Below are positions 38,431 to 62,948 of a DNA stretch of 64,000 nucleotides, piece after piece. Both the position numbers and the translations under genes were made by a program. Under the pieces are notes generated by a model. The model had not been told where the DNA came from. It searched no databases and was given only the letters and a program-made list of their open reading frames with translations. This stretch comes from Chloroflexota bacterium (GTDB taxonomy: Bacteria; Chloroflexota; Limnocylindria; Limnocylindrales; CSP1-4): NCBI GenBank assembly GCA_021813655.1, contig JAKAJU010000189.1, positions 2,229 to 66,228 on the forward strand, given 5' to 3'. Numbering within the stretch: position 1 is the first letter of the stretch; the number at the start of each line of letters is the position of its first letter.

Positions 38431-38944
38431 CTGTGCCAGTACCGCTCCCTCGGTGCGCCGCTCCGGTAGAGACTACCTCCCGGTGGCGCCTGGGGGAACG
38501 GAACGCGGGCTAGAAACCCTTCAGAGAGGCCCCACCAGCCAGCGCAGCTGCAGCAACCGCGCCGACGGCCGTGATGAGGCGGAGGATCCTGAACTTCATC
38601 TAGCGATACCTCTGCCGCTCTCGACCTGCCTACCAGCCCTTGACGAAGGACTCGATCCGCACGCTCGTACCTCCTGCGGCCTCCTGTTCGCAAAACAGGA
38701 AACCGACCTGACTCGGGGTCGGTCGGTTGCACTAGTCGCTCTGCCCTTCCCTAAGTGCCCAGTTCAGGAGGGGCTTCGAAGCGTCCGAGCGTCAATTCGT
38801 GCCGCTAGTACTTTCGTACTGCCAGCGCACCGGACTATAGGCGGCCGCTCGCGGAAGGGTCAATAAGCACGCATGCCTATCGACTCTCCGCCGTCTGCCG
38901 TATTCTCGACCGACAGCCGCCAACCGTCGCACACCAGTTGCGGG

Positions 38945-41900: not shown

Positions 41901-42202
41901 CCGATGTCACGAAGGAGTCCCGCAGTCGTCTCGCCGACCTCGGGCGCCACCCGGCGGCAGGCGGTGAGCAGGTATCGGACGAACGTGACGACGTCGCCGT
42001 CGTCCTCGTCGAGCTGGTGCCAGATGGTCCGGATCCGCGTCCGCCGGGCGAAGTCGGCCAGAAGCGTGGTCTTCCCGTAGCCGGCCTCGGCGACGACCGT
42101 GACCACGCGCCGGTGGATCTTCGCGTCGAGCCAGTCCAGCAGCCGTGATCGCGACAGGACGTCCGCTCGGAGCTGGGGCGGCTGGGTCTTGCTCAACCGC
42201 AT
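38945..42202 (-). CDS. STAND NTPase transcriptional regulator with a C-terminal SARP module (wHTH + BTAD)
   Basis: The MalT-like N-terminus (MRLSKTQPPQLRADVLSRSRLLDWL...VVTVVAEAGYGKTTLLADF) carries Walker A and B motifs, and is followed by TPR-like helical repeats. The C-terminus is an OmpR/PhoB-type winged helix (RRKVLSLVCYLCTRPEMTATREQVLDAIWPD...LNQTVYFLRRVLEPD) followed by BTAD (FEYEDWATTHRDYLHARYLEA...). The start is uncertain (M at 42202 or 42289, no good SD). Confidence 0.7.
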   Translation of the reverse strand: MRLSKTQPPQLRADVLSRSRLLDWLDAKIHRRVVTVVAEAGYGKTTLLADFARRTRIRTIWHQLDEDDGDVVTFVRYLLTACRRVAPEVGETTAGLLRDIGTLATPASVLVDTFVRELSALTDEPTVLIFDDVQALDHAPEVQHALREIVARAPDRMTVVLSGRQRPPVALARLRTHGEVAELTADDLRFDHAETETLFRETYRRPLDRESLAALEERTEGWVASLNLVRAAIRDRSDREVRRFIRDLSATEGPLYDYLAEEVVGDLDPDLRSFLMRTSLLVDVEVGPAMDAADVDRATAVEDIAQAQRLGLLSMGRGRSARSGAQYHPLVRGFLTARLAREIGADGVRAVHLRIAAAAEPIDWRRAAHHYAEAGDADDLHRVLVAATRSIMSAGDYSYAESYISRFPTADETPWFDIILSRRELRSGRVDDAILRAERAVAELEAPGPDRHLALANLMTIHFFAGDFEKARALAATVSELEDEPYLVPIALGTSALIDVSRGGSLTLAEERLRAALTLQTEASGRHYRGVTLLNLAFVCRVQGRADAALECANEALAAFGDSAASIERSSAHLARAWALAHLNRPQEAMSDLEAARDLGSLGIMDEVLAEGADVLGAYIDPEQADSWLQLGSENLPSGWVPGDAMLPLARAENAVRLGALEDAARLLEQAEPSSGALDVGAVSHLAASVAVLAVRRGQPEAASLCRRALSVARAQGADYWAAKAQLALAASSADRSVMSHAVLDIARRDAALLSAFAEVVAPYLPLLNTESEAVVATAAGERPARWASALRDVLATGSAESVVEAARVLESVGSSRDVAPLREAGRRVRRLREVDVSVRRLARRVAPRVEIHDLGAVSVAVGDTVLAGSSIRRKVLSLVCYLCTRPEMTATREQVLDAIWPDLTPELASNSLNQTVYFLRRVLEPDYHDETTPGYVMSDQDMVWFDTELVKADSQSCLVLLRSKASAESDDSVSILAESYGGRFALDFEYEDWATTHRDYLHARYLEAMERAILRFTEAGDYPNALYLAHRVLDVDSTAESIERTAIRLYRCMGAFAAAAEQYAHYAQVQRAEFGLEVPPIDAL

Positions 42203-42499
42203 CGGAGGATCGGTCACCGCCCAGTACGCGGCCGTCCGACCCTGGTGCGGCGGCGCGCCCCCGGGTCCGACCGGGACGCGTGCCGCCATCCCCCCAGCGC
42301 CGGAATCGGCCTGTGCGGACGATACAGGCGTTTCGAACGGCGCGTGACTCTCCCGCGTCGTGCACGGACGTTGAGTTGTCGCTGAGATTCGGTAGGAGGG
42401 CGGCATGGTCGGGCGATGGTGCCCGACCCGAATCACCCGCGGATCACCACGGACACGCCGAGGCCACTCCTCGGGGGGCTACTCAGCCCCCCGCGCGGG

Positions 42500-42748: not shown

Positions 42749-44098
42749 CTAGGCGGCCCCCGCCGCCGCCCTGTCCCCGGCGTACCCCACGAAGCGCGTC
42801 TGTCGCTTCTTGAACCAGAGCTGGAGCTCTCCCGTCGGTCCGTTGCGGTGTTTGGCGAGACGGACGTTCACCATCTCGCCGTCGGCGTCCGCGTCGTCGG
42901 GCTTCTCCTTGTCGCGCCAGAGGAAGATGACGAGGTCGGCGTCCTGCTCGATCGCGCCCGATTCGCGCAGGTCGGAGAGCCGCGGCTCCTTGGACTCGCG
43001 CATCTCGGCCTGGCGCGAGAGCTGCGAGAGAGCGACGACCGGGATGCTCAGCTCGCGCGCGAGCGCCTTGAGCCCGCGCGAGATCTCGGAGACCTCCTGG
43101 ACCCGGTTCGCGTCGCGGCTCTGCACGGTCGCCTGCATGAGCTGGAGATAGTCGACGACGATCAGGTCGAGGCCCGATTCCGCCTGCAGCCGTCGGGCCT
43201 TGGTGCGCAGCTCCATCGTGGAGATGTTGGGCGTGTCATCGATGTAGATGGGCGCCTCGGACAGGGCATTCATCGCGGGTGCGATGCGGGCGAAGTCCAT
43301 CTCCTCGAGGAATCCGCTCCGAAGCCGCTGGGAATCGATGTTCGCCACGCTCGAGAGGAGGCGCAGGACGAGCTGCTCCTTGCTCATCTCGAGGCTGAAG
43401 ATGCCGACCGACTTCCCGTCGCGGACGGCCGCGTGCTCGGCGACGTTGAGAGCGAAGCTTGTCTTGCCCACGCTCGGGCGCGCCGCGAGGACGACGAGGT
43501 CGCTCTTCTGGAGGCCGGTCGTGAGGGCGTCGAGGTCCGCGAACCCGGTGCGGACGCCGCTCACCTCGCCGCGGTGCGCGTGGAGATAGTCGAGGCGGTC
43601 GTACGCGTCATGGAGGAGGATGCGCAGCCGCGCGAAGCCGTCGTCCACCCGGCGCTGGCTGACGGCGAACAGCTCCTGTTCGGCTCGGTCGATCGCCGCC
43701 TGCACGTCCGCGCCGTCCTCGTACCCGATCGCAGCGACCTTCCCGGCCGCGGCGATGAGGTTGCGGAGGACTGCCTTGCGCTCGACGATCCGTGCGTAGT
43801 GCATCGCGTGGACGGCGGTGGGCGTCCGGTTCGAGAGGGTCGACAGGTATGCGCGACCGCCGACCGCCTCGAGCTGGTCGGCGCGCTCGAGTGTCTCGGC
43901 GACGGTGACGATGTCGACCGGCTCGCGCCGCTCGAAGAGCTCGAACATCGCGCCGTAGACGGTCCCGTTCGCCTGCCGGTAGAAGTCCTCGGGGCGCAGG
44001 AACTCGGCGATCTCGACGATCGCGTCGCGGTCGATGAGGATGGCGCCGAGGACCGATTCCTCGGCTTCGACGCTCTGGGGCGGCAGGCGGTCGATCAC
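42749..44098 (-). CDS. dnaB: Replicative DNA helicase DnaB
   Basis: N-terminal PPQSVEAEESVLGAILID, Walker A motif ARPSVGKTSFALN, and the RecA-like motifs ...IVVDYLQLM... No intein is present. Confidence 0.9.
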   Translation of the reverse strand: MIDRLPPQSVEAEESVLGAILIDRDAIVEIAEFLRPEDFYRQANGTVYGAMFELFERREPVDIVTVAETLERADQLEAVGGRAYLSTLSNRTPTAVHAMHYARIVERKAVLRNLIAAAGKVAAIGYEDGADVQAAIDRAEQELFAVSQRRVDDGFARLRILLHDAYDRLDYLHAHRGEVSGVRTGFADLDALTTGLQKSDLVVLAARPSVGKTSFALNVAEHAAVRDGKSVGIFSLEMSKEQLVLRLLSSVANIDSQRLRSGFLEEMDFARIAPAMNALSEAPIYIDDTPNISTMELRTKARRLQAESGLDLIVVDYLQLMQATVQSRDANRVQEVSEISRGLKALARELSIPVVALSQLSRQAEMRESKEPRLSDLRESGAIEQDADLVIFLWRDKEKPDDADADGEMVNVRLAKHRNGPTGELQLWFKKRQTRFVGYAGDRAAAGAA

Positions 44099-44264
44099 TC
44101 GTGACTCCGGTCTGGGGTGCGACGGGACCGATCATGCGTCCCCGCCCGGCCGGAAGCCACCGACTTACCCACGACCTCGTCCACGAAGATCGGATACCCG
44201 GCTCGCCGTCGTGGGCGGCGTGTGCACAGACTGTGGATTCCGCGCACGGTCCCGCCGACGCGGG

Positions 44265-44945
44265 TCAGTCGAGCCGGCGGATGACGCCGATGAGCTTCCC
44301 CTGGATCCGCACCTCGTCGTAGAACTGCGGCGGGTAGTCCGGGTTGGCCGGCTGGAGGCGGATGCGCCCCTGCTCGCGGAAGAACCGCTTGAGCGTGACT
44401 GCGTTCTCCTCCACCTGGGCGACGACGATGTCCCCGTTCCTGGCCGTCTGCTGCGGCCGGATGACGACGTAGTCCCCGTCGGTGATGTGCGCCTCGATCA
44501 TCGAGTCGCCCCGGACGCGGAGGAGATAGGCGTCGCCGTCCGGAGACAGCATCCCCGGCACCGGCACCGTCTCGGAGACATCCTGGTAGGCCTCGATCGG
44601 TCCACCGGCGGCGATCTCGCCGACGACCGGCAGCACGTGGGAGGCGCCCGCTGTGGAGGACTGGGCGATCTCCAGCTGCAGGCCGAGCATGATCGCGGCT
44701 GCCGGGGTGAGCCGCAGGGCGCGTGGCTGCGCGGCCCGATGGGCAGCATCCGGGCCGTCGAGATAGACACGCTCGAGGTACCCGTCGCGCTCCAGGGCCT
44801 GGAGATGGTGGTGGACGGCCGACGTGGACGCGAGGTCCACGGCGCGCGCGATGTCCCGGATGGACGGAGGGAAGCCGGTCTCGCGGGTGGTGGCCGCGAT
44901 GTACTCGAGGATCCGCCGCTTACGCTCAGCGTCGTGCTTGGTCAC
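44265..44945 (-). CDS. lexA: LexA repressor
   Basis: N-terminal wHTH (RETGFPPSIRDIARAV), a cleavage site in ...VPVVGEIAAGGP..., and the S24 peptidase Ser/Lys (VRGDSM...KRF). Confidence 0.9.
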   Translation of the reverse strand: MTKHDAERKRRILEYIAATTRETGFPPSIRDIARAVDLASTSAVHHHLQALERDGYLERVYLDGPDAAHRAAQPRALRLTPAAAIMLGLQLEIAQSSTAGASHVLPVVGEIAAGGPIEAYQDVSETVPVPGMLSPDGDAYLLRVRGDSMIEAHITDGDYVVIRPQQTARNGDIVVAQVEENAVTLKRFFREQGRIRLQPANPDYPPQFYDEVRIQGKLIGVIRRLD

Positions 44946-51404: not shown

Positions 51405-52067
51405 ATGGCGGAACGGCATGGCGCGTTCGGCGACGAGACGCTCAGAGGCTTCGTCGCGCACCTCTCCTCGGCCGAGCCCATCCCGGGAGGCGGAAGCGCC
51501 GCGGCGGTGGGAGCCGCCATCGCGGCAGCGCTCGTCGCGATGGTCGCGTCGCTCTCGCGGGATCGACCCCTGTATGCGCAGTACCTCGTGTCGATCGAGC
51601 GATGCGAAGCGGAGGGCAGGCGGCTCTCCGAACGCTGCCTCTCGCTCGCGGACGAGGATTCGGCGGCGTACGGACGCTTCGCCGCCGCCATGAAGATGCC
51701 GCGGGAGACGGACGACGAGAAGGCGCGCCGCACGGCCGCTCTCGGGGAGGCCGCGACGGTGGCGGCACAGGTCCCGCTGGCGGTCGTCCTCGCCTGCCGC
51801 GAGATCGCGTCCGCCGCGGAGGAGCTCGCCGGCCGCAGCAACCGCAACGCCGCGAGCGATCTCGGCGTCGCGGCGCACTTCTCCGTCGCGGCTGCGCACT
51901 CCGCCGCCGAGAACGTGCGCGTGAACCTTCCGTCCGTCCCTGATCGGGAGCTCGCTGACGACCTGGAGTTCCGCACGACCGAGGCGCTCGCGGACGTCGA
52001 GCGCATCGCCCGCGCCGTTCGCGCGGTCGTCGCCGCCGGGAGTCTCCGCGAGCCCGTCGCGGAATGA
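51405..52067 (+). CDS. fchA: Methenyl-THF cyclohydrolase / formimino-THF cyclodeaminase (FTCD_C/FchA family)
   Basis: ...FVAHLSSAEPIPGGGSAAAVGAAIAAALVAMVASLS... is the cyclodeaminase-domain signature. Confidence 0.7.
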   Translation: MAERHGAFGDETLRGFVAHLSSAEPIPGGGSAAAVGAAIAAALVAMVASLSRDRPLYAQYLVSIERCEAEGRRLSERCLSLADEDSAAYGRFAAAMKMPRETDDEKARRTAALGEAATVAAQVPLAVVLACREIASAAEELAGRSNRNAASDLGVAAHFSVAAAHSAAENVRVNLPSVPDRELADDLEFRTTEALADVERIARAVRAVVAAGSLREPVAE

Positions 52068-52981
52068 GCCCGCGCGGGGGGCCTCGTCTTCTCGCGGGCG
52101 CGCCGATCGCCGCGGAGATCCGGGCCGGCGTGAAGGAAGCCGTCGGGGCCTACGAGCGCCGCCAGGGGTATCGCCCGTCGCTCGCCGTCGTCCTCGTCGG
52201 AAAGGACGCGCCCTCCGCCGTGTACCTCCAGCAGATCCTCCGGAGCTGCCGGAGCGTCGGGGTCCACGGGCGGATGGTCGAGGTCTCCGGCCGCGCGTCG
52301 AACGCGCACCTTCGGTCGGTGCTCGCCGACCTCAACGGGGATCCCCTCATCAACGGGATCATCGTCCAGATGCCCCTCCCTCGGCACCTCGACCTCGAGA
52401 CGGTCGCCGAGACGCTCGACCCGGCGAAGGACGTGGACTGCATCACGCCCCTGAACGCGGGGCTTCTCTCGCTCGGCAAGGAGGGCTTCCAGCCCGCGAC
52501 AGCCCGCGCGTCGGTGGAGATCCTCGTCCGCTCCGGCATCGAGCTCGAGGGCAGGCGGGTCGTGGTCGTGGGCCGATCGAACGTCGTGGGGAAGCCGGCG
52601 GCCCTCCTGCTCCTCCGCCACCACGCGACGGTCTCGATCGCGCACTCGAGGACCGCCGACCTGCGGGGTCTCCTTCGATCCGCCGACGTCGTGGTCGTCG
52701 CGATCGGCCGGCCCGGCTTCGTGACCGGATCGATGCTCAAGCGTGGGGCCGTGGTCGTGGACGTGGGGATCAACGTCGTGGACGGGACGATCGTCGGCGA
52801 CGTGGACCAGGCGTCGGCACGCGAGGTCGTCTCGGCGATCACCCCCGTCCCTGGCGGTGTGGGACCCGTCACGAACGCGATCCTGTTGACCCAGCTGATG
52901 ACCGCTGCCGAGCGCCAGGCGGCAGCCGAACCGCGCGGGCGGCGTGCGCTCCGGACCGGTGCGGCGCAGGCACTCCACTGA
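52064..52981 (+). CDS. folD: Bifunctional methylene-THF dehydrogenase / methenyl-THF cyclohydrolase
   Basis: ...AVYLQQILRSCRSVGV...NGIIVQMPLP...VVVVGRSNVVGKPAALLL...PVPGGVGPVT. The ATG overlaps the fchA stop (ATGA). Confidence 0.85.
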   Translation: MSPRGGPRLLAGAPIAAEIRAGVKEAVGAYERRQGYRPSLAVVLVGKDAPSAVYLQQILRSCRSVGVHGRMVEVSGRASNAHLRSVLADLNGDPLINGIIVQMPLPRHLDLETVAETLDPAKDVDCITPLNAGLLSLGKEGFQPATARASVEILVRSGIELEGRRVVVVGRSNVVGKPAALLLLRHHATVSIAHSRTADLRGLLRSADVVVVAIGRPGFVTGSMLKRGAVVVDVGINVVDGTIVGDVDQASAREVVSAITPVPGGVGPVTNAILLTQLMTAAERQAAAEPRGRRALRTGAAQALH

Positions 52982-53078
52982 CATCTCTCGATCCGGGCCC
53001 GCGGACGGCGGAGATGCGGTCCGGGCCCCGGAGATACGCGCCCGGCCCGTCCGGCCGCCAACCGTCCTGGAGGACCCG

Positions 53079-54785
53079 ATGAGCTTCCCCTCCGATCTCG
53101 AGATCGCGCGTTCGGTCACGCCCCTGCCCATCGTCGACATCGCCCACGACCTCGGGCTCCGCGACGACGAGATCGAGCTGTACGGCTCGACGAAGGCGAA
53201 GGTGACACTCGAGGGCCTCCACCGCGTGGAGGCCGAGGGCCATCGCGGGAAGTACGTGGTCGTGACGGCGATCACACCGACACCCCTCGGCGAGGGGAAG
53301 TCCACGACGACCGTCGGGCTCGCGCAGGGCCTCAACCGGATCGGGCATCGCGCGGCGGTCACGATGCGCCAGCCGTCGCTCGGTCCGGTCTTCGGGATCA
53401 AGGGCGGCGCCGCGGGCGGCGGCTACAGCCAGATCATCCCGATGGAGGACTTCAACCTCCACCTCACGGGCGACGTCCATGCGATCGGCGCGGCGCACAA
53501 CCTCGCGTCGGCCTTCCTCGACAACAGCCTCCACCACGGCAACCCTCTCGGGATCGACGTCCACGGCATCCTCTGGCCGCACGTCGTGGACATCAGCGAT
53601 CGCGCCCTCCGCCATGCCGTCATCGGCCTGGGGGGTCGCGAGGACGGGATCCCGCGCGAGACCGAGTGGTTCATCACGGTCGCGTCCGAGGTCATGGCGA
53701 TCCTCGCGCTCGCCAGTGACCTGCGGGACCTCCGCGAACGGCTGGGGCGCGTTGTCCTCGCGCGGACGCGGGACGGGGGGCCGGTCACCGCCGAGGACCT
53801 GAAGGTCGCCGGCGCGATGACGGTCCTTCTCAAGGACGCGATCAAGCCGAACCTCCTGCAGACGCTCGAGGGCGGCCCCGCGTTCGTGCACTGCGGACCG
53901 TTCGCGAACATCGCGCACGGGAACAACAGCATCCTCGCGGACCGCGTCGCCCTTGCCACGAACGAGATCGTCTGCACCGAGGCTGGCTTCGGCGCGGACA
54001 TGGGCGCCGAGAAGTTCTTCGACATCAAGTGCCGCGCGTCGGGGCTCCGGCCGGATGCCGCTGTCATCGTCGCTACCGTCCGCGCGTTGAAGATGCACGG
54101 CGGGGTGGGCCGGATCGTCGCCGGCAAGCCGCTCGACCCCGCGCTCACACAGGAGAACGTCGAGGCGGTCCGGAAGGGCGCCGAGAACCTCGCGGCGCAC
54201 GTGGAGATCGTCCGCAGGTACGGCGTCCCTGTGGTCGTCGCGATCAACGCGTTTCCCACGGACACCGATGCGGAGTACGCGGCGATCCGCGACGTCGCGC
54301 TCGCCGCCGGAGCCCACGACGCCGTGGTCACGCGCAACTTCGCGGAGGGCGGCAAGGGCGCCGAGGATCTCGCCCATGCGGTCTGGTCGGCCGCCGAGGA
54401 GGGTGCCCCGGGCTTCCACTTCCTCTATCCCGACGAGATGCCGCTCCGCGAGAAGATCGAGACCATCGCCCGCGAGATCTACGGGGCAGCCGGGGTGGAC
54501 TTCGCACCGGGGGCGTCGAAGAGGATCGCCGACTACGAGGCGCTCGGCTACGGATCGCTCCCGGTCTGCATGGCCAAGACCCACCTCTCGCTGTCGCACG
54601 AGCCGTCGCTCAAGGGGCGCCCGACCGGGTTCCGTTTCCCGGTGCGCGACGTGCGCCTCTCTGCGGGAGCAGGGTTCGTCTACCCGCTCGCCGGCGACAT
54701 GCGGACGATGCCCGGGCTCCCGTCGAAGCCCGCGGGGAACGACATCGACATCGACGCGAACGGTGAGATCGTCGGGTTGTTCTAG
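53079..54785 (+). CDS. fhs: Formate--tetrahydrofolate ligase
   Basis: ...VTAITPTPLGEGKSTTTVGL...FDIKCR...LPVCMAKTHLSLS... Confidence 0.9.
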   Translation: MSFPSDLEIARSVTPLPIVDIAHDLGLRDDEIELYGSTKAKVTLEGLHRVEAEGHRGKYVVVTAITPTPLGEGKSTTTVGLAQGLNRIGHRAAVTMRQPSLGPVFGIKGGAAGGGYSQIIPMEDFNLHLTGDVHAIGAAHNLASAFLDNSLHHGNPLGIDVHGILWPHVVDISDRALRHAVIGLGGREDGIPRETEWFITVASEVMAILALASDLRDLRERLGRVVLARTRDGGPVTAEDLKVAGAMTVLLKDAIKPNLLQTLEGGPAFVHCGPFANIAHGNNSILADRVALATNEIVCTEAGFGADMGAEKFFDIKCRASGLRPDAAVIVATVRALKMHGGVGRIVAGKPLDPALTQENVEAVRKGAENLAAHVEIVRRYGVPVVVAINAFPTDTDAEYAAIRDVALAAGAHDAVVTRNFAEGGKGAEDLAHAVWSAAEEGAPGFHFLYPDEMPLREKIETIAREIYGAAGVDFAPGASKRIADYEALGYGSLPVCMAKTHLSLSHEPSLKGRPTGFRFPVRDVRLSAGAGFVYPLAGDMRTMPGLPSKPAGNDIDIDANGEIVGLF

Positions 54786-54797
54786 CCAGAGGCGCGA

Positions 54798-55719
54798 GTG
54801 AGGCGGTTCGCAGAACTCCTCGCGGGCGCGGTTCTCGTGGGCACGGTCCTCGGGCTGCGTCCCTGGTGAGCACGGACCCGCCGGGGTCCGGGGCAGCACC
54901 GGCGCGCGGTCCAGCGGGCGCTCCCCGGACCTCGACCTCTTCGACACGCCCGCCTCCGTCGTCGCGACGCTTCACGCGATCCGGCGACACGCCGTCTGCT
55001 ACATGAGCGCCGGGAGCCTCGAGGGCTGGCGGCCCGACGCTGCGCGGTTCCCACCTCAGGTCATCGGGCGGTCGCTGCAGGGCTGGAGCGACGAGCGCTG
55101 GCTGGACATCCGGACGATCGACGTCCTCGCGCCGATCATGCGCGCCCGCCTGGACCTCTGCCACATGAAGGGCTTCGACGCGGTGGACCCGGACAACGTG
55201 GACGGCTGGGTCAACGGGACGGGCTTCGCGCTCACCGCCGACGACGAGGCGCGCTTCATCGCCTGGCTGGCCAACGAGGCGCACGGGCGCGGTCTCGCGG
55301 TGACGCTGAAGAACGATCTGCACCAGGCGGCGCGGCTCGCCGGATACGTGGACGCGGCCGTGGTCGAGCAGTGCTTCGTCTGCGGCGAGTGCGACCTTGC
55401 GCGACCGTTCGTCGCAGCCCGCAAGCCCGTATGGGAGATCGAGTACGCGCTGGCGCCGGGGGCATTCTGCGCGAAGGCGCGAGCCTCGGCTTCGACGCAG
55501 TTCGCAAGAAGCTGGACCATGGTGCGTGGCGGATCGCCTGCGGCCACGCGAGATGGCCACGCGCGTGACGGTCCTCGTCCTCGGGCGCAGGGCCGCGCGG
55601 CCGACGGCGACGGTCGCATGCGAATCCGGGATGGTGGGCCGATCACACCAGGTACCACCACGCCTCGCCACGTCGGACGAACGAGAGGGACTCCGCGCCC
55701 GTCGAGCCGCCGATCGTGA
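54798..55719 (+). pseudogene. GH114 (endo-alpha-1,4-polygalactosaminidase-like) gene disrupted by a frameshift after the signal peptide
   Basis: GTG at 54798 (AGAGG SD) encodes a signal-peptide-like VRRFAELLAGAVLVGTVLGLRPW and then stops at 54868. The GH114 catalytic motifs continue in the +1 frame (...DLDLFDTPASVVATLHAIRRHAVCYMSAGSLEGWRPD...ERWLDIR...GFDAVDPDNVD...EIEYA). That frame has no start codon before 55003. The C-terminal end is ill-defined. Confidence 0.45.
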
Positions 55720-58700
55720 GCCGGAACGGGACCGCCGAGGCCAGGTCGGCGGCCGACGGCGTCGGGCCGATCCCACCGAGCGCCCAGGCGCCGGTCTTCG
55801 GATAGAAGGCCACGTTGGCGATGAAGCCCCGCCCCGATCGGGGGCGCACGTATGTGCAGACGCCATGGATGGACCGGAACGTCGCGCCGGGGACCGTTTC
55901 CGACAGCGAGCCGACGGTAACGGTGACGTCCTGACCGCACTGAAGGCCGGCGCCCCGCGGCGGCGTCAACGACCCGAGTGCCGCGAGGAGCGGCCCGGCG
56001 CGCCTGGCCTCGGGACGGATCATCGCGATGCGGACGCTGAGCGTTGCGTTGCCCGTCACGCGCACCGTCACGATGGCCGGATCGCTGGTTGCCAGTCCAT
56101 CAGTCGCGGCATACGTGAACGTGACGGTGTCCACGAATGGGGCCGCCAGTGCCGTGAATCGGATCATGCCGCCGACAACGGACGCCGAGCCGGTCGTGGG
56201 CACCGAACTGATGGATACCGTCATGGTGTCGCCATCCGCGTCGATGCAGCCGGGCGCGATCTCCGCGGTCTGACCTGCGATGACGGTCGCGCTGAGAGCC
56301 TGGCAGGAGGGCGTCGCGTTGGTGACGGTGATGCGGAATGTCAGCGGACCCGAATCGCCGACCAGGCTCGTCGCCGTGCTGACGACATGGACCGACCGGA
56401 ACGTGAACAGGTCGGGACCCGCGTATCCGGCCGCCGGCGTGTAGACGAACGATCCGTCGGAAGCGAGCTCAAGAGTGCCGTGCGACGGGGCCTGCATCAG
56501 CGAGTAGCGACGATCGCCATCGTCCGGGCAGCGCGTCGTTGCCGTGAGCCGGTGACCCCGGGCGGTCGTCGCCTCCAGGTCACACGTGCCGGGGGCACCC
56601 GGCGCCAGGACGACGATCTGCTCGCCGGCCGGGTGGGCGAAGCGCAGGGGCGCCGCGACCACGATCGAGCCGTGCTGGCTGTACTCCACCAGCTCCTGGT
56701 TCGGGCCGCCGCCGTTGATCCGGAGACGATCGCCGGGATTGAGTCCGTCGATATTGGCGTCGAGGTGGGCGCTACCGGCGTCGGCCGGTGTGCCCAGCAG
56801 CGCCGAGCGCGCATCACCGCCGAGAATCACCTTCGCCGCCGCCCAGGACACGCGCCCGTCCGGACGCTGCCGCCACGGCCCGTAGACCCTGCCAACGCCT
56901 CCGTCCTGCACCGGAAGCCCGCGGACCAGGATATGTTCGGGATAGTTCGCGACGAATTCGATGTCGCCGAAGACGCCGTAGACATCGACACCGAAGCCAG
57001 GTGCGATGATCCACAGGCCCTCGTAGCCGGGGAACGGGGGCTCGCCGAACGTCCCCGGGTACGACCCGCGATAGAACCTGCCATCGCCGCCGGCGTCCTG
57101 GACCACGAGCACGGCGGCGGGATCCTTGAACTCGGCCCGCCAACCCACGCATTCCCAGGAGTTGCTGACGGCGAACCCACCGGTCACCCGGTTCACGTGA
57201 TAGGCATACGCGACGAGATCCGCGTGAGGCCCATCGATGTGGAACCGCCGCTGGACTCCGTCCTGGGTCGCGACGAGCTCGTTCGCGCAGTCGGGGTTCA
57301 CGCTCGGCCGCGTCAGGATCGGGAAGTCCACGGTGAATGCGGCCTCGAACGTCTCCGCTGGAGCGAACGTCTGGACGTAGTCCTGGCCGGCGCCATGGCC
57401 GGGCATCCGCACCTCGATCGGTCCGCCCTCGGGGTCCCAGCCCGTCCCCCGATATTGGAGCATCTCACCGACACTGATGTCGTATGCCGCGCCGCTGCGG
57501 ACGGCGCTCGAGGTGTCGATGGGGGTATCGACGCCCACCTTGTAGACCGCGAGCTTCTGTTCGAACACGCCGGCTTCGTGGGTCGCCGAGACCTCCGGCG
57601 CCGGGACGGTCGCCCCGTTGTATGTCCCGGTGCCCGAGAAGGTGATGGTGTAGAGGCCCGGCTCCGTCGGCGTGAACGTGTAGTGAAGTTGCAGCCCGCT
57701 GCCGGGGTCGAGCGAACCCATTGACGCCGACGGCGGCACGGTCAGGACGCCGCTGGGGCCCTCGATCGACACCGCGGGTGTGACGTCGTCAAGCGTCACC
57801 AGGCCGGTGTTCGAGAGACCGGCGGAGAGCGCGACGAGGTTGTTCACTTTGAACCGCGCTGGTTCGATGGACGTGAAGCTCGCCTCGAGGCGAGCACCCG
57901 CCACGTCGACCTGCTGTTCGGTGCTGTTGGTGCGGCCGCGGTCGTCGGTCACCACCAGCGTCACGGTGAACGTCTCGAACGCCGGGAAGTCGAATTCGAC
58001 GACCTCGCCGTCCAGGACCTCGGCCGGATGGTCGGCATTGCCGACGGCCCAGCGCCACGTCGTGACCTGCCCGTCCGGGTCGGACGAGCCCGAGCCGTCG
58101 AACCGCCAGTGGAGCAGGTCGTCGCCCTGCTGCGTGGCCATGAAGGACGCCACCGGCGGCTGGTTGTCGCCGAGCTCGAAGTCGGCCGTGGCGTCGCCGG
58201 TCGAGAGGTCCGCCGTTCGGCTCTCAGGTCGGCCGTCGACGTGCCGGATTGTGCAGTCGCCGCTGTCGGGCGGACAGTCCTCGATGTCGGCCGAGGCACG
58301 CACTCGATACGTGCCGCGCTTCAGCCACGTCTCGTAGAACCCCGTCCCGTCGGTCGTGACCGATCGCGACGGGTTCGCGGCGGCGGGCGGGTCGGCGTCG
58401 ATCGTGATCTCCGCGTTTGCCACCCCTTCGCCGTCGTTGCCGCGTACGTATCCCGACAGCCGGTAGCCATCGAACTCGAAGTTCGCGATCGCATCGGGTA
58501 CGAACTCGTTGGAAACGTCGCGGTAGACGGGAACCATCCCGTATGAGTCGTCCGGGCAGGCCTCGTAGTCGGCCGGATCGTCGACGAAGGCCTTGTACGA
58601 GCCATCGGGGCCGGTGCGCGGTACGGTCAACGGCGACGGACGCGGGTCCGCGGTGCAGGGCGAGTCGGTCGCGCCGGCACGTTCATAGATCAGCACGCCC

Positions 58701-59542
58701 CGGTCGGACAGGGGCCGGCCGGCAGCATCGCGAATCGTGCCCGAGACGGACGGATCGAGCAGGTACACCTGCGTCCGCGGATCGCCCGGTTGCGGCCAGA
58801 ACCTGATGGTCTCCTGCGGGGACGGGCGCCGGAACGGCGTGTAACCGAGGTTGGTCACGCAGCCGTCGCACGACGGATCGGGGCCAAGCTCGGGCGTTCC
58901 CGCCGAGAACCAGGCCGCCGCCGTCCGGGCGCCGACGAACGGAGCTTCGGCCTGGGTGATGGGCTCGAACCAGGTCGCAGGGATCTCGTCATGCCGGAGG
59001 ACCGTGAACTCCGCCCAGAGCTCGCTGCCCGGCTGGATGCCGCACAGCGGGAGGTTGTTGTCCATCGCTGCGCCGGCGCGAACGCACCCGTCATCGGAGA
59101 ACGCCCAGATGATCGTGCTCTGCGCGGCGGAGCTGCTCGTGACCACCGCGTTCGACGGTCCGCCCCAGCCCGTGAGGCGGCCGCCCGGGAAGCGAAGCAC
59201 CACGTTCCATGTGCCGGTCGTGTTGAAGACCGGGTGCGGAATGGCGTCAAGCGGGTCGTACTCCCAGATCAGGCGCTGGACGGGCGGATACTCGACGCGA
59301 ACCGCGATCCGCACCGTGTCGCCCGGCTTCGGGTTCGCCTGGTCCACGCTGATCGTGCCGACGAGATGCCCATTCCAATAAGCATCGCAGGTCGATCCCG
59401 GGCCGGTAGCATGCGGCAGAGCACAGTCGGTGCCGCCTGCCGCGGCGCGCGTCGTCTGGACACCAAGTCCGGGGGGTGCAATCGTTGACGTGAGTGCGAG
59501 CAGCAACGCCGGCAGGACGGCACCGAGGCGGGGGTGACGCAT
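55643..59542 (-). CDS. Large secreted multidomain surface protein (PKD, carboxypeptidase-regulatory-like and cadherin/Ig-like beta-sandwich domains)
   Basis: Signal peptide MRHPRLGAVLPALLLALTSTIAPPG follows a GGAGGAA SD. PKD-like segment WRFDGSGSSDPDGQVTTWRWAVGN...TVTLVVTDDRGRTNS. CarboxypepD_reg-like segment YRLSGYVRGNDGEGVANAEITID...TDGTGFYETWLKRGTYRVRA. Several Ig/cadherin-like repeats follow. Product is about 1,299 aa. Confidence 0.75.
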   Translation of the reverse strand: MRHPRLGAVLPALLLALTSTIAPPGLGVQTTRAAAGGTDCALPHATGPGSTCDAYWNGHLVGTISVDQANPKPGDTVRIAVRVEYPPVQRLIWEYDPLDAIPHPVFNTTGTWNVVLRFPGGRLTGWGGPSNAVVTSSSAAQSTIIWAFSDDGCVRAGAAMDNNLPLCGIQPGSELWAEFTVLRHDEIPATWFEPITQAEAPFVGARTAAAWFSAGTPELGPDPSCDGCVTNLGYTPFRRPSPQETIRFWPQPGDPRTQVYLLDPSVSGTIRDAAGRPLSDRGVLIYERAGATDSPCTADPRPSPLTVPRTGPDGSYKAFVDDPADYEACPDDSYGMVPVYRDVSNEFVPDAIANFEFDGYRLSGYVRGNDGEGVANAEITIDADPPAAANPSRSVTTDGTGFYETWLKRGTYRVRASADIEDCPPDSGDCTIRHVDGRPESRTADLSTGDATADFELGDNQPPVASFMATQQGDDLLHWRFDGSGSSDPDGQVTTWRWAVGNADHPAEVLDGEVVEFDFPAFETFTVTLVVTDDRGRTNSTEQQVDVAGARLEASFTSIEPARFKVNNLVALSAGLSNTGLVTLDDVTPAVSIEGPSGVLTVPPSASMGSLDPGSGLQLHYTFTPTEPGLYTITFSGTGTYNGATVPAPEVSATHEAGVFEQKLAVYKVGVDTPIDTSSAVRSGAAYDISVGEMLQYRGTGWDPEGGPIEVRMPGHGAGQDYVQTFAPAETFEAAFTVDFPILTRPSVNPDCANELVATQDGVQRRFHIDGPHADLVAYAYHVNRVTGGFAVSNSWECVGWRAEFKDPAAVLVVQDAGGDGRFYRGSYPGTFGEPPFPGYEGLWIIAPGFGVDVYGVFGDIEFVANYPEHILVRGLPVQDGGVGRVYGPWRQRPDGRVSWAAAKVILGGDARSALLGTPADAGSAHLDANIDGLNPGDRLRINGGGPNQELVEYSQHGSIVVAAPLRFAHPAGEQIVVLAPGAPGTCDLEATTARGHRLTATTRCPDDGDRRYSLMQAPSHGTLELASDGSFVYTPAAGYAGPDLFTFRSVHVVSTATSLVGDSGPLTFRITVTNATPSCQALSATVIAGQTAEIAPGCIDADGDTMTVSISSVPTTGSASVVGGMIRFTALAAPFVDTVTFTYAATDGLATSDPAIVTVRVTGNATLSVRIAMIRPEARRAGPLLAALGSLTPPRGAGLQCGQDVTVTVGSLSETVPGATFRSIHGVCTYVRPRSGRGFIANVAFYPKTGAWALGGIGPTPSAADLASAVPFRLTIGGSTGAESLSFVRRGEAWWYLV

Positions 59543-59728
59543 CGCGATGATTCCTCCGATGGGCGCCGCGTCGATCGTCCCCGCACCCCTCGGTACGTCG
59601 TGGCCCAACGGACCGGCACCGATCCCGCGCCAGCGTCCACGCATACCTTCCTGCGAGTTGCGCACGGGCGATAGCTCGCGATTCCACCCAGTGCGGCAAT
59701 CGAGTGTTATGACAGTTGCCGGCGTGAC

Positions 59729-62224
59729 ATGAGCGACGGGGACACGCACGCGCTGCCCTCGACGGAGATCCGGCGAATGCGCCACGCGCTCTCGCTCAGC
59801 CAGGAGCAGTTGGCCCGACGGGTCGGCGTCTCCTTCGCGACCGTCAATCGCTGGGAGCGCGGCCGCTCACGGCCTCGCGGAGCGGCGCTGCAGCGGCTCG
59901 AAGTGATCCGATCGCTTGCGCCCATCCCGTCGGCGCCCGCCGCGGCGCGAGGCCCGGTGGGCTTCCCGGCCCCGATGACGAGTTTCATCGGCCGGGCCGC
60001 AGAACTGGAGCGGTTGCGCCAACTCCTTGGGACCGTTCGGCTCGTCACGCTGGTGGGCGCCGGCGGGAGCGGGAAGACGCGGCTGGCCGTCGAGGTGTTG
60101 ACGAGCAGCACGCCAGAGCCTGCTGGCGAGGTGCGATTCGCCAGCCTCGAAGCACTCGTGGCAGACGACGATCTCGCCGGCTCCCTCGTCGCGCAGGTTG
60201 GCGACGCTGCCGGCGGCGCGGATGGCGGTGACGCGCTCGCGCAGGCGTTTGCCGGGACGCGGCTGCTGGTGCTCGACAACTGCGAACACGTCCTCGAGGC
60301 GTCGCGCAGGGTCGTCACGCGTCTGCTGGCGGACCGTCCCGACCTTCGCATCCTCGCCACGAGCCGGGAGCCGCTGGGACTGGCGGCCGAATCGGTCGTC
60401 CGCGTGAGCGGGCTGGGAGCCGACGATCCGCAGCATTCCGACGCGGTCGCGCTGTTCATCGACCGCGTCCAGAAACGCATGAGCAGCTACGGGCCGGGTG
60501 CCGGTGAGGTCGACGCGATCGCGGTGCTCTGCCGGCGCCTCGACGGCCTGCCACTCGCGATCGAGCTCGCCGCGGCGTTCTTGCCGGCCCTGTCGCCGGC
60601 GGAGATCTCCGAACGGCTCGACCATCGGTTCCAGCTTCTCGTGTCGCACGACCCTGGTTCAGCGCAGCGACACAGGGCGCTCCAGGCCACGGTCGCGTGG
60701 AGCTACGACCTACTCGAGCCTGCCGAACAGCGGCTCTTCGAACGCCTGTCGATCTTCCCCGCAAGCTTCTCCTTCAATGCGGCCGAGGCGGTCGGCGCAC
60801 GCAACGACGACGAATCCGACGCGTCGGATGTCTTCCTGGGCCTCGCGTCGCTGGTCGACAAGTCGATGGTGGAGGTCCGGACGGACGGCTCAGGTTGGCG
60901 ATATGAGCTGCTCGAGAGCCTCCGCGAGTTCGGCCGCGAGCGGCTGGCGGAACGTGGCCGGCTCGATGAAGCGTCGGCGCTGCTCTTCGCGTGGGCGCAC
61001 GACTTTGCCGGCCGTGCGGCCACGGGGATGGTAGGGCCTGAGCAGCGGACGTGGCTGGTGGCCGCCGCCCTCGAAGCCGACACAGCCGAGTCGGCGCTCG
61101 CGTGGGCCGTGGCTCGCGGCGACGCAGCGCGGGCGGTTGGGCTTGCCGGCCGTTTCTGGCGCTACTGGTATTCGCGCTCCGACATTCGGGGCGGGCTGCG
61201 GCGTCTGGACGCCGCACTCGCGCTGCCAGGCGAGGTCCCGGGAGCGGACCGGGCACGGGCCCTGCTGGGAGCCGGCGCGCTCGCCCGGCAGCGCGGCGAC
61301 TATGCCGCCTCCGTCCGGTATCTCCGCGAGCACCTCACGCTGGCGCGGCAGTTGGGCGACGACAACGCCATCGCTGACGGCTACAACAGCCTCGCGGGCG
61401 CACTCCACGGCGCGGGCGACACCTGCCGTGCGCGCGCGATCCTCCAGGAAGGCGTCGCGTGGTGGGAGAGCCGGCACGATCGCCACGGGCTCGCGTCCGC
61501 GCTCAGCAACCTCGGGGTGCTTGCGTCCGACGACGGCGACTACCAGGCGGCGCGGCGATTCGGAGAACAGGCGCTCGCGATGCGGCTTGCCCTCGGCCAC
61601 GAGGAGAGCATCGCGATCTCGTACGAGAACCTGGCCACGGCGGCGCTTCGCGGCGGCGACCGCGGCGAGGCCCGACATCACTTCCGGGAGGCCCTGGCGC
61701 GGTATTCGGCCCTCAACGAACCCGACGGGATCGCGACCGCGCTCGAAGGCCTCGCGGCGCTGGCCGCCGCCGGCGTCGCCGTGACGCTGTACGCCGCCGC
61801 GGCCCGACTCCGGCGCGACATCGAGGTGCCATCGACCCCCGCCGACGAGGCGTTCCACCGCGACCGCCTCGTGGATCTGCGCCACGAGGTCAAGACGGCG
61901 GAGTTCGACGCGCGTTGGGCGGCTGGCGAAGGACTCGGTGTGCCGGCCGCGACGTCGCTGGCTCTGGCGTCATCACTGGGGGAGGACCGTGGCGCCGCCG
62001 CGCAGCCGTCGGCTGGCCGCCTGACGCGCCGTGAGCGGCAGGTCCTCGAGCTCATGACGCACGGGCACACATCGAAGGAGATGGGGGCCCAGCTCCGTCT
62101 CAGCCCGAGGACAGTGGAGCGCCACCTTGCCAGCATCTACGGCAAGGTGGGTGCCCGCGGTCGAGCCGACGCGATCGCGTTCGGCCTGCGCACCGGAACC
62201 GGAACGCCCGATGCTGAGCCATAG
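59729..62224 (+). CDS. XRE-HTH / NB-ARC (STAND) ATPase / TPR / C-terminal LuxR-HTH transcriptional regulator
   Basis: N-terminal XRE HTH ([32 protein letters not shown]). Walker A motif [15 protein letters not shown] and Walker B motif [12 protein letters not shown]-like repeats. C-terminal LuxR HTH ([44 protein letters not shown]). Confidence 0.8.
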
Positions 62225-62948
62225 GCGGCGTCTGCGCCCACGAGCAGGCCGCCGGTAAGGTCGGCGCTGATCGTCGTCACGAGGATCGGCGGTGGCGGTG
62301 TGCTTCGGTCCGACGGACGCGTCCGTGACGAGGTTCCCGGCGATGATGGCGGCGTCCGATCCGGTGAACCGCCCTGACTTCGGTGGAGACTCTGAGGTGC
62401 CCTGAGTGGCGTGAAGTCGCAACACCTTGCCCTCTCGGGTCGGATGCTCGGTGCACCCCCCTCGACTCACGTGCGAGGGTTCGCTCGCGGGGGCGACTCG
62501 CTCGAACGTCCGACGGGCGATCGCTATCCTCCGCCGGACCTCGGATCCTTCTCATATGGTCGCCCGGCGGACGCAAGACGACTCCCGGCCCCGATCGGCG
62601 CCTGACACCGGACCATCGGGTGCCTCCGCCACGCTTGTCACGCACTCGCACGGGCGCGCGGGGCGCGCGATCGAGCCTCGCCGGCTCTCTACGGTCCGCC
62701 GGGCGACCGTATGAGGTCGTGTGGACCGTGGCGCATGCCGCCCGCTCGCCGCGTTCCCAGTCCACGCCATCCATACACCAGGAGAATGTGTGCCGGGCGG
62801 GCGGGTCCCGGACGCGGCTGGCCGCGCTCTGGAGGCGAGGTCAGGCGCCCGGTCGGAGCTCGAGATCGGCCCGCGCCCTGGCCGGGCGGTGCGTCAGCCC
62901 TGCCGCCCATTCTCCGCGTGCAGATCCGGCCGGCGCGGTCCGGATCGG

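Follow-up and report, generated by a model that had tools for sequence, protein, structure and literature searches.

A STAND regulator with helix-turn-helix domains at both ends, probably dedicated to the neighbouring gene for a giant secreted protein

Analysis of a 64-kb stretch of DNA (the window) identified an 831-residue protein that we interpret as a signal-sensing STAND transcription factor, most likely the dedicated regulator of the adjacent secreted-protein gene and of its own gene. We consider this reading probable, with considerable room for doubt. It draws on the closest relatives of the regulator, from other uncultured actinobacteria, which keep the same kind of neighbour, so that the regulator is most likely dedicated to that protein. 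The regulator has a complete set of domains, with intact conserved ATPase motifs and two conserved helix-turn-helix (HTH) domains; its gene is linked to that of the secreted protein, and a conserved DNA element lies between the two. The features of the locus are listed in Table 1.

Table 1. Coordinates of the features of the locus in the window, with the evidence for each.
Feature	Coordinates	Strand	Evidence
Secreted multidomain protein gene, 1,299 aa	55643..59542	-	ORF; SD GGAGG; orthologue P0122
Unannotated C-terminal domain, aa 1163-1299	55646..56056	-	12-strand beta-sandwich, two invariant Cys
Two Big_9 / Cadherin_4 Ig-like domains, aa ~990-1160	56063..56575	-	Pfam
Segment with conserved ...PLRFAHPAGE... 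motif, aa ~915-980	56603..56800	-	BLASTP to L002 and L008 partner proteins
CarboxypepD_reg (aa 362-419) and PKD (aa 460-543)	57914..58459	-	Pfam; PKD confirmed against collagenase PKD structures
N-terminal 'head', aa 36-262	58757..59437	-	Best-conserved part (59% identity to P0122); no known family
Signal peptide, aa 1 to ~35	59438..59542	-	MRHPRLGAVLPALLLALTSTIA...; conserved in P0122
Divergent intergenic region, 186 bp	59543..59728	.	Sequence
Near-palindrome TGTTATGACA, candidate operator or unusual extended -10	59705..59714	.	Sole match in 64 kb
Regulator gene, 831 aa	59729..62224	+	ORF and Pfam domains; exact match P0001 in GCA_027347925.1
XRE-type HTH, N-terminal, aa 14-58	59768..59902	+	HTH_3 E 2.9e-11; PDB 2ppx E 3e-4
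NB-ARC-type nucleotide-binding oligomerisation domain (NOD), aa ~78-420	59960..60988	+	Motifs; AfsR 8k60 profile match
TPR sensor region, aa ~508-660	61250..61708	+	TPR_12 E 1.1e-16, four stretches; TPR_10, TPR_7, TPR_2
LuxR/GerE-type HTH, C-terminal, aa 765-817	62021..62179	+	GerE E 3.6e-15; PDB GerE 1fse E 2e-8

The initial annotation had described a four-domain regulator (XRE HTH, NB-ARC, TPR and LuxR HTH) with a DNA-binding domain at each end, and this architecture was recovered by Pfam, by motifs and by a profile match to AfsR. The N-terminal HTH is not spurious: HTH_3 scored 43.7 bits against a Pfam cut-off of 23, which assigns it to the XRE family. GerE scored 55.8 bits (cut-off 23.5), giving the C-terminal LuxR-type HTH behind a P-loop NTPase that marks LAL proteins, and TPR_12 scored 61.2 bits (cut-off 30.1) over four stretches. 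The NTPase core remained under the Pfam cut-offs (AAA_16, 27.0 against 32.6; NB-ARC, PF00931, 14.2 against 23.5). Its motifs, Walker A GAGGSGKT (aa 110), Walker B LLVLDN (aa 179), TSR (aa 211) and GLPLA (aa 273), are those of STAND NB-ARC/AP-ATPases and are invariant in the family alignment (16 homologues), as are residues Q25, R41, W42, E43 and G45 of the XRE HTH. The XRE recognition helix, SFATVNRWE, is common to the window regulator and its closest homologues.

A family profile of the NOD matched the solved structures of AfsR (8k60, E 3e-16), Roq1 (3.5e-7), Apaf-1 (3e-6) and Sr35/CNL9 (~1e-4). Homology to solved NB-ARC proteins spans the NBD and the helical and winged-helix subdomains, placing the NOD in that clade. 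The NOD and TPR core aligned with AfsR in a single stretch of about 650 residues (E 1.9e-30), reaching profile position 702. The MalT-type NOD model (NCBIfam PRK04841) gave 24.2 bits against 537, with the match confined to the HTH, and no SARP domain (Trans_reg_C and BTAD) was matched by Pfam at the N-terminus, where HTH_3 is found instead. The layout is not rare, as 31 of the 120 best homologues carry both HTH_3 and GerE; BTAD with GerE was found in 27 of the 120. Homologues with a cyclase domain (PF00211) also appear among the best listed, including one with PF00211 and GerE (P0101), which shows that the N-terminal module is swappable. A characterised XRE-STAND-LuxR protein was not found in the literature searched, the coverage of which was incomplete and leaves such an absence unproven. 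The second STAND regulator that had been reported nearby was confirmed at 38945-42436(-), with AAA_16/AAA_22, TPR and BTAD domains.

Both open reading frames were found with the positions, sizes and divergent layout first given for them, and their GC3 (0.84-0.85) is of coding type. The 186-bp gap that had been proposed between them stands with starts giving 831 and 1,299 residues. It does not stand with the NCBI annotation of the same DNA (GCA_027347925.1), in which M17 (59777) is the first residue of an 815-aa regulator and the surface gene starts at 59749 to give 1,368 aa, leaving a gap of 27 bp. Comparison of sequences and assemblies favours the former starts as the probable ones. P0122 (48% identity), the sole orthologue that covers the whole surface protein, aligns starting at the signal-peptide Met, GC3 drops to 0.69 within the upstream extension of the surface gene, HTH helix 1, upstream of M17, is retained by regulator homologues, and the gene caller of another assembly gave 831 aa and 1,299 aa for the two genes. 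The Shine-Dalgarno-like GGAGG lies 10 nt ahead of the surface-gene ATG. A consensus scan of 59300-60000 found no sigma-70 promoter or terminator, a repeat search of the intergenic region returned only short, unconvincing repeats, and Rfam and tRNA scans found no RNA genes at the locus.

The near-palindrome TGTTATGACA occurs as a single intergenic copy, at a distance of 15 nt from the regulator ATG and, on the other side, 162 nt from the surface-gene ATG. That it is single and so far from the surface gene weighs against the dedicated-regulator reading. Its core, GTTATAAC, is a perfect palindrome, and the core pattern GTTATRAC was found once in the 64-kb window, with 0.49 expected. The element recurs 8 nt before the start of the homologous regulator P0002 (locus L008) and 3 nt before that of P0004 (locus L002). 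A second copy is found downstream of the regulator stop in L002, where it separates the regulator from the secreted-protein genes that follow, and in L015. When a shuffle test was applied to the finding of any shared 9-mer in three 60-nt upstream regions, the observed result was equalled in 18 of 1,500 runs. Every protein whose locus has the element carries the same XRE recognition segment (ending in [RS]G); in P0005 the segment differs, and the locus is without the element.

Read along the strand of the gene that follows it, each of the five sites gives TGnTATRAC. This suggests that the element may be a promoter -10 region instead of an operator, in which case TGnTATRAC would be the core promoter (extended -10-like) of short-leader or leaderless transcripts and not the binding site of the regulator. 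Its agreement with TGnTATAAT at 7-8 of 9 positions is consistent with such a role, as is its location 3-15 nt ahead of the points at which translation of the regulators of L002, L008 and the window begins. However, the final base of the hexamer is C in every copy, whereas in actinobacterial -10 boxes the T found there is conserved above all other bases. The perfect palindromy of the core, the way in which presence of the element follows the XRE recognition helix, and the absence of any promoter call at the element in the consensus scan also argue against a core promoter. We regard a core promoter as a serious possibility, short of probable, and prefer to treat the element as a candidate operator. 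Placement of the element as a -35 box was considered separately and rejected, since the transcription start of L008 would fall within the HTH-coding region.

The neighbouring gene encodes a giant secreted protein with PKD, Ig-like and CarboxypepD_reg domains, as had been proposed. The signal peptide is its sole hydrophobic segment, and Big_9 (54.6 against 23.6), PKD_4 (42 against 27) and CarboxypepD_reg (33.9 against 32.3) all scored above the Pfam cut-offs, as is characteristic of a secreted Ig-like multidomain protein. It contains 18 Cys and is acidic in composition. A whole-protein profile search against the PDB matched the PKD domains and nothing else. Two stretches that are conserved with P0122, aa 36-262 and ~655-900 (about 480 residues together), match no family. 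An AlphaFold model of the head (aa 36-262), built from a two-sequence alignment, reached a pLDDT of 45 and was unusable. A gene of the GH114 polygalactosaminidase family is convergent with the surface gene and overlaps it by 77 nt.

The C-terminal domain, in contrast to the head, was modelled by AF2 with a pLDDT of 93.8. The PLRFAHPAGE motif precedes it also in P0240, P0246, P0248 and P0249. An exhaustive phmmer search of 1.84e9 representatives found the domain in 31 clusters at E<1e-3, and in 29 of these the match ends at or near the protein C-terminus; the exceptions are P0232 and a repeat protein, P0241, which is a probable false hit. Fold searches gave no match at E<0.01 in the PDB or a viral library, where the best matches were generic Ig-like folds (E 0.04 and 0.015, respectively; TM <=0.47). 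A scan of the genome collection with a 7-sequence alignment of the domain identified two real loci only, L011 and L012. Two GTDB representative genomes carry it, both metagenome-assembled (Acidimicrobiales and Microthrixaceae MAGs), and both metagenome scans found nothing. The search has uncovered an undescribed C-terminal domain on giant secreted proteins from poorly known uncultured actinobacteria.

The adhesin-like or S-layer-like label first given to the protein had as its basis just the signal peptide and Ig-like domains, and is at most putative. The protein has no LPXTG motif with a hydrophobic tail, as a sortase-anchored adhesin would, and no membrane anchor by hydrophobicity; Pfam and NCBIfam gave no match to SLH or a recognised S-layer anchor, a result that does not in itself exclude an S-layer role. 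The protein may instead be a secreted or surface-tethered enzyme or a polymer-binding protein, which we find plausible without its being the expected outcome. All of these absences are consistent with such a function, as are the long conserved stretches outside known families, the Beta_helix/NosD heads carried by some relatives with the C-terminal domain, and the overlapping GH114-family gene. On the other hand, no catalytic domain was detected, the PKD, Big_9 and CarboxypepD_reg content is typical of adhesins, and the unusable head model contributes nothing in favour of an enzyme.

Whatever its function, the secreted protein is of a kind that recurs beside this regulator. The closest regulator homologues (47-55% identity), from other metagenomes, adjoin large secreted proteins that have the final ~135 residues in common with the window protein. 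In L002, three genes follow the regulator (P0004, 47%): one with CarboxypepD_reg, one of 167 aa and one, co-directional with the regulator, whose 1,224-aa product has the C-terminal domain (HMM E 6e-40). The regulator of L008 (P0002, 51%) has a convergent neighbour with the domain (HMM E 1.7e-22). A third homologue, P0003 (55%), is a 632-aa C-terminal regulator fragment that begins at the end of a 4,741-bp contig in the same sample as P0122 (JGI 3300056388), and at the end of the 6,237-bp contig with P0122 lies a divergent gene cut off at 164 aa. These circumstances suggest that P0003 and P0122 are probably likewise an adjoining pair. The C-terminal domain is so rare (31 clusters in 1.84e9) that chance adjacency is negligible. 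The number of close loci, 3 or 4, is nevertheless low, which counts against the reading. Regulators of other kinds also adjoin proteins with the domain: those of L017 and L018 lie next to P-loop, TPR and BTAD regulators, one of them divergent, and P0229 adjoins GAF-GerE and GerE regulators.

Adjacency need not mean regulation, and the regulator may be global or otherwise targeted and merely lie beside the surface gene. More distant XRE-STAND-LuxR homologues (37% identity; P0005 and P0024) have unrelated neighbours, and L011 and L012, which carry the C-terminal domain, lack a regulator of this kind within 10 kb. The orientation of the pair also varies (divergent, co-directional or convergent), which indicates that the 186-bp region is not a conserved shared control region. 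AfsR itself regulates globally and ectopically, and of the AfsR-like regulators 58% are not situated in a cluster (bioRxiv 10.64898/2026.09.02.748808). Nevertheless, all of the 3-4 independent close loci retain a partner with the rare domain, and the second copy of the element in L002 lies ahead of the secreted-protein genes. We consider a non-regulatory adjacency unlikely; the comparative sequence evidence supports the view that the regulator and the secreted protein beside it are functionally linked.

An anti-phage sensor of the Avs or bacterial NLR type is highly improbable: STAND NTPases with TPR sensors commonly sense phage (PMC12803255), and weak PADLOC matches were obtained, but these are limited to the two HTH segments and the TPR repeats, the protein is without a nuclease, protease, TIR or other killing effector, its nearest structural relative is the transcription factor AfsR, and its conserved partner is a secreted structural protein. 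Membership of a defence system was rejected on the level of the PADLOC matches and the lack of an effector.

For a dedicated regulator, every binding and regulatory step is our inference, as are the signal and whether control is by activation or repression. In a resting, nucleotide-bound state, the NOD and TPR regions would hold the regulator inactive. A cue read by the TPR region would then lead to ATP-dependent opening and oligomerisation, by analogy with MalT and AfsR, after which the DNA-binding domains would work within the 186-bp divergent region. The XRE domain would most likely read TGTTATGACA upstream of the regulator's own start, giving autoregulation, and the LuxR domain, or the whole oligomer, would drive the surface-protein promoter.

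A bolder scheme, which we offer as doubtful, is that giant secreted proteins with the C-terminal domain and STAND regulators form conserved two-gene 'sense-and-display' modules, involving at least two unrelated regulator families (XRE-NOD-TPR-LuxR and P-loop-TPR-BTAD). Here the two HTH domains would act as a toggle: in the off state XRE would hold its own promoter at TGTTATRACA, and after NOD oligomerisation LuxR would activate the surface promoter. If true, the scheme would represent a new STAND logic, and in Acidimicrobiia-like actinobacteria it would add a class of surface proteins that have an anchoring or sorting domain of their own. Apart from this, the arrangement is fairly ordinary with a few new details, a useful lead that does not overturn current understanding. 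The repeated pairing of domain genes with large sensor-regulators suggests that the proteins may be displayed or released only on specific cues. The XRE and LuxR subfamily is widespread and unstudied, and raises the question of how one switch coordinates two DNA-reading heads. The locus offers a compact test case, in which a single regulator and its one likely target flank a 186-bp control region with just one candidate operator.

MalT, AfsR and LAL proteins are models of signal-dependent ATP switches, and characterised STAND regulators such as these have, to our knowledge, a single DNA-binding module in all cases. In AfsR, the NOD and TPR regions inhibit the DNA-binding domain and ATP relieves the inhibition (PMC10936776). 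AfsR (Streptomyces coelicolor; SARP, NB-ARC NOD and TPR) has the same NOD and TPR core and motifs as the window regulator and likewise an N-terminal DNA-binding effector. The window regulator, however, has an XRE HTH in place of SARP and an extra C-terminal LuxR HTH, its host is not a streptomycete, and its likely target is a secreted protein and not antibiotic genes. The F/Y-H-D switch of AfsR is not conserved: RYRFHDLVRLYA of AfsR aligns to the family sequence RYrLLEtlRefA, with L-L-E at aa 393-395 of the window regulator. Replacement of the His-Asp switch by Leu-Glu suggests that switching details may differ.

MalT is activated by inducer-dependent multimerisation, and MalT-type LuxR STAND proteins are usually locus-specific activators switched by inducer and ATP (PMC4381067). 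MalT and LAL proteins share with the window regulator the order of P-loop STAND NTPase, repeat sensor and C-terminal LuxR-type HTH, whereas its NOD belongs to the NB-ARC clade and not to that of MalT, and it has an additional N-terminal XRE HTH. SARP-LAL proteins (e.g. PimR-type) are described as having a DNA-binding domain at the N-terminus and a C-terminus of LuxR type (bioRxiv 10.64898/2026.09.02.748808; PMC5930380). They provide the known precedent for a STAND protein with two DNA-binding modules, but their N-terminal module is SARP and not XRE, TPR is described as absent from them, and their targets are polyketide clusters. Mycobacterial cyclase-ATPase-TPR-LuxR proteins of the Rv0386 type presumably belong to the same family as the homologues of the window regulator; their N-terminal module is a class III cyclase enzyme, where the window regulator has a second HTH.

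Both long open reading frames lay exactly where the initial annotation had placed them, with the GC3 bias typical of genuine genes in a window of about 71% G+C. The locus has a counterpart in contig DAIEQJ010000034.1 of the metagenome-assembled genome GCA_027347925.1, where the NCBI annotation places the regulator start at M17 (815 aa) and that of the surface-protein gene 207 nt farther upstream (1,368 aa), leaving 27 bp between the genes. The original starts were favoured for both. A GGAGG lies 10 nt ahead of the surface-gene ATG at 59542, which opens a classical signal peptide, the sole hydrophobic segment of the protein; the alignment with P0122, the only full-length orthologue among 5.8 billion clusters searched (48% identity), begins exactly at the signal-peptide methionine; and GC3 is 0.69 in the NCBI extension, compared with 0.84 within the gene. 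For the regulator, HTH helix 1 residues upstream of M17 were conserved among homologues, and the gene caller of another assembly gave 831-aa and 1,299-aa products. The regulator start is somewhat uncertain because M17 has its own GGAG 9 nt upstream. In the stretch concerned (window 59729-59785 and L001), the NCBI annotation probably over-extends the surface-protein gene and may truncate the first HTH helix of the regulator.

Coordinates of features in the window and in comparison loci
Feature	Position	Strand	Remark
DUF5317+MFS gene	35026-37005	-	
HD_5/HD-GYP-type phosphodiesterase gene	37009-38430	-	
c-di-GMP-II riboswitch	38712-38795	-	RF01786, 61.3 bits, E 3e-11
Second STAND gene	38945-42436	-	1,163 aa
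DnaB helicase and LexA genes	42749-44945	-	between both STAND regulators
Folate one-carbon cluster	51405-54785		FTCD_C, FolD, formate-tetrahydrofolate ligase
GH114 gene	55003-55719	+	endo-alpha-1,4-polygalactosaminidase family
Surface-protein gene	55643-59542	-	1,299 aa
Intergenic region	59543-59728		186 bp
Inverted 8-mer CCGCACCC	59581-59588		39 nt upstream of surface-gene ATG
Element TGTTATGACA	59705-59714		15 nt before regulator ATG
Regulator gene	59729-62224	+	831 aa
HTH_3	regulator aa 14-58		Pfam, above curated cut-off
TPR_12, four stretches	regulator ~aa 510-660		Pfam, above curated cut-off
GerE	regulator aa 765-817		Pfam, above curated cut-off
Region without NCBI gene call	62225-62948		724 bp downstream of regulator
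11-mer GCCGGGTGCGG	L002 ~7930; L008 ~535		45-55 nt before palindrome
AIM24-family gene	L011 3072-3938		Microthrixaceae MAG
AIM24-family gene	L015 10641-11390		

The HTH domains at both ends of the regulator were supported by PDB sequence searches (N-terminal, XRE protein 2ppx, E 3e-4; C-terminal, GerE 1fse, E 2e-8) as well as by Pfam, and the N-terminal one is not spurious. The NTPase core scored below the Pfam cut-offs (AAA_16, 27.0 vs 32.6; NB-ARC, 14.2 vs 23.5). It contains Walker A (GAGGSGKT), Walker B (LLVLDN), TSR and GLPLA motifs, whose residues did not vary among 16 aligned homologues. A family profile of this NB-ARC-type core (NOD) matched AfsR (E 3e-16) as well as Roq1 (a plant NLR), Apaf-1 and resistance proteins of the CNL type, and the full-length profile gave a single continuous alignment with AfsR across NOD and TPR (E 1.9e-30). 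By sequence, the core clearly belongs to the NB-ARC clade of STAND NTPases. From the Pfam domains, core motifs, profile matches and PDB HTH matches, the initial four-domain description is therefore correct.

The surface protein is acidic, with 18 cysteines. After its signal peptide come a 227-aa region without family assignment, then CarboxypepD_reg and PKD domains and a region weakly similar to DUF7507/CARDB. Some 250 residues without assignment separate these from a segment bearing the PLRFAHPAGE motif, which is followed by two Big_9/Cadherin_4 domains and, at the very end, roughly 135 unannotated residues. Domain and sequence scans revealed neither LPXTG nor SLH, and no membrane anchor. When 1.84 billion representatives were scanned exhaustively with HMMER, just 31 clusters matched the C-terminal domain; in 29 of them the match ended at or near the C-terminus, in proteins as long as 1,900 aa. 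Two cysteines were invariant in a 24-sequence alignment. The AlphaFold model is a 12-strand beta-sandwich (pLDDT 93.8), for which the PDB and viral library gave nothing better than generic Ig-like folds. Among GTDB representative genomes, the domain occurred only in one Microthrixaceae and one Acidimicrobiales MAG, a spread that fits an Acidimicrobiia-like source without proving it. The GH114 gene is convergent with the surface-protein gene, their 3' ends overlapping by 77 nt; its start codon may be miscalled, since the Pfam match begins only at profile position 47.

Regulator homologues were repeatedly found beside this domain. P0004 (47% identity), recovered on 14 contigs, is followed by genes for a CarboxypepD_reg protein and for products of 167 aa and 1,224 aa, the larger of which matches the surface protein with its C-terminal 410 residues (E 1e-25; domain HMM, E 6e-40). 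The convergent neighbour of P0002 (51% identity) carries the domain (HMM E 1.7e-22) and a PLRFAH motif. P0003 (a fragment, 55% identity) and P0122 come from one and the same metagenome; at the end of the P0122 contig lies a divergent gene fragment of 164 aa, and the P0003 contig starts with the last 632 residues of the regulator. They are probably two halves of one divergent pair. In homologues at 37% identity the linkage was lost. Loci L011 and L012 lacked any homologue of the regulator within 10 kb; at L011, an OmpR-type response-regulator gene lies 1.4 kb downstream, and an AIM24-family gene adjoins the C-terminal-domain protein. At L017, a 960-aa P-loop, TPR and BTAD regulator lies 85 bp upstream of the domain gene; L018 has a divergent, homologous 1,031-aa regulator (30% identity, E 1e-65); and P0229, another protein with the domain, lies between GAF-GerE (upstream) and a GerE protein (downstream). 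Chance is very unlikely to explain this recurrent pairing with large sensor-regulators, because the domain is so rare, and the pairing supports a putative regulator-target relationship, as initially proposed. It does not mark the 186-bp region itself as a conserved control region, because gene orientation differs among loci.

The regions upstream of three regulators (window, L002 with P0004, L008 with P0002) are otherwise unalignable and share an AT-rich near-palindrome. The window 10-mer recurs identically 8 nt before the P0002 start, and P0004 has TGTTATAACT 3 nt ahead of its annotated start. The core GTTATRAC was observed once in each of the 64-kb window, L002 and L008, with 0.49, 0.24 and 0.06 expected, respectively, from base composition; shuffling to test for any 9-mer in common reached the observed result in 18 of 1,500 runs. 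Additional copies lie directly after the regulator stop codon, ahead of downstream genes, at L002 and the more distant L015. The XRE recognition segment (...[RS]G) was identical in all proteins with the element at their loci and differed in P0005, whose locus lacks it. As this segment tracks the element while the LuxR recognition helices vary, the comparison points to the XRE domain as candidate reader, which would mean autoregulation. Every copy also faces its downstream gene, as would be expected of an unusual extended -10 box (TGnTATRAC) of short-leader transcripts, a possible reading with roughly one chance in three. An anti-phage defence role was rejected, as PADLOC matches were confined to the HTH segments and TPR repeats and no killing effector was found. 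Separately, GCCGGGTGCGG is common to the L002 and L008 upstream regions, with CCGCACCC inverted in the window; this GC-rich motif may arise by chance. At L015, a distant XRE-STAND-LuxR homologue is immediately followed by an AIM24-family gene, which is preceded by a copy of the element GTTATAAC.

The domains, their intact motifs, the gene linkage and the conserved element are observations; the switch that follows is inferred by analogy with AfsR and MalT (PMC10936776, PMC4381067). NOD and TPR would restrain the DNA-binding modules until a cue and ATP permit opening and oligomerisation. The XRE head would bind the palindrome at the regulator's own promoter; the surface-protein promoter would then be targeted by the LuxR head or by the assembled oligomer.

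The second STAND gene noted initially is present. Its product combines an NTPase core resembling that of MalT (PRK04841, E 3.6e-58 over aa 82-635, below cut-off) with TPR repeats and a BTAD that is C-terminal, not N-terminal. The L017 and L018 regulators, adjoining C-terminal-domain genes, share this layout and are weakly similar to it (E 1e-6). The riboswitch lies directly upstream of the phosphodiesterase gene, followed by the DUF5317+MFS gene, and could form a feedback loop through which c-di-GMP would regulate the enzyme that degrades it. The DnaB/LexA and folate surroundings are ordinary chromosomal context and showed no mobile-element signs. ORFs in the stretch downstream of the regulator had no Pfam match, and no Rfam match was found there.

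The initial observation is confirmed overall and its interpretation supported in part. Three points are modestly new: a previously undescribed C-terminal domain, its repeated occurrence beside STAND regulators, and a candidate operator. The double-HTH architecture is common, not exceptional: among the best 120 of 7,933 homologues, 31 had HTH_3 and GerE (JGI product name 'predicted ATPase / CsgD family / XRE family') and 27 BTAD and GerE. Others in this set begin with a kinase or class III cyclase. Judging from these domain assignments, the N-terminal module is swappable on a common NOD-TPR(-LuxR) chassis. A literature search for a characterised XRE-NOD-TPR-LuxR protein found no paper; SARP-LAL proteins are the named precedent for STAND regulators with two DNA-binding modules (bioRxiv 10.64898/2026.09.02.748808, section 8; PMC5930380). 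AfsR has a reported F/Y-H-D switch motif, whereas the aligned position in the regulator's family reads L-L-E. The regulator is an AfsR/LAL-type STAND transcription factor of an abundant, uncharacterised double-HTH subfamily.
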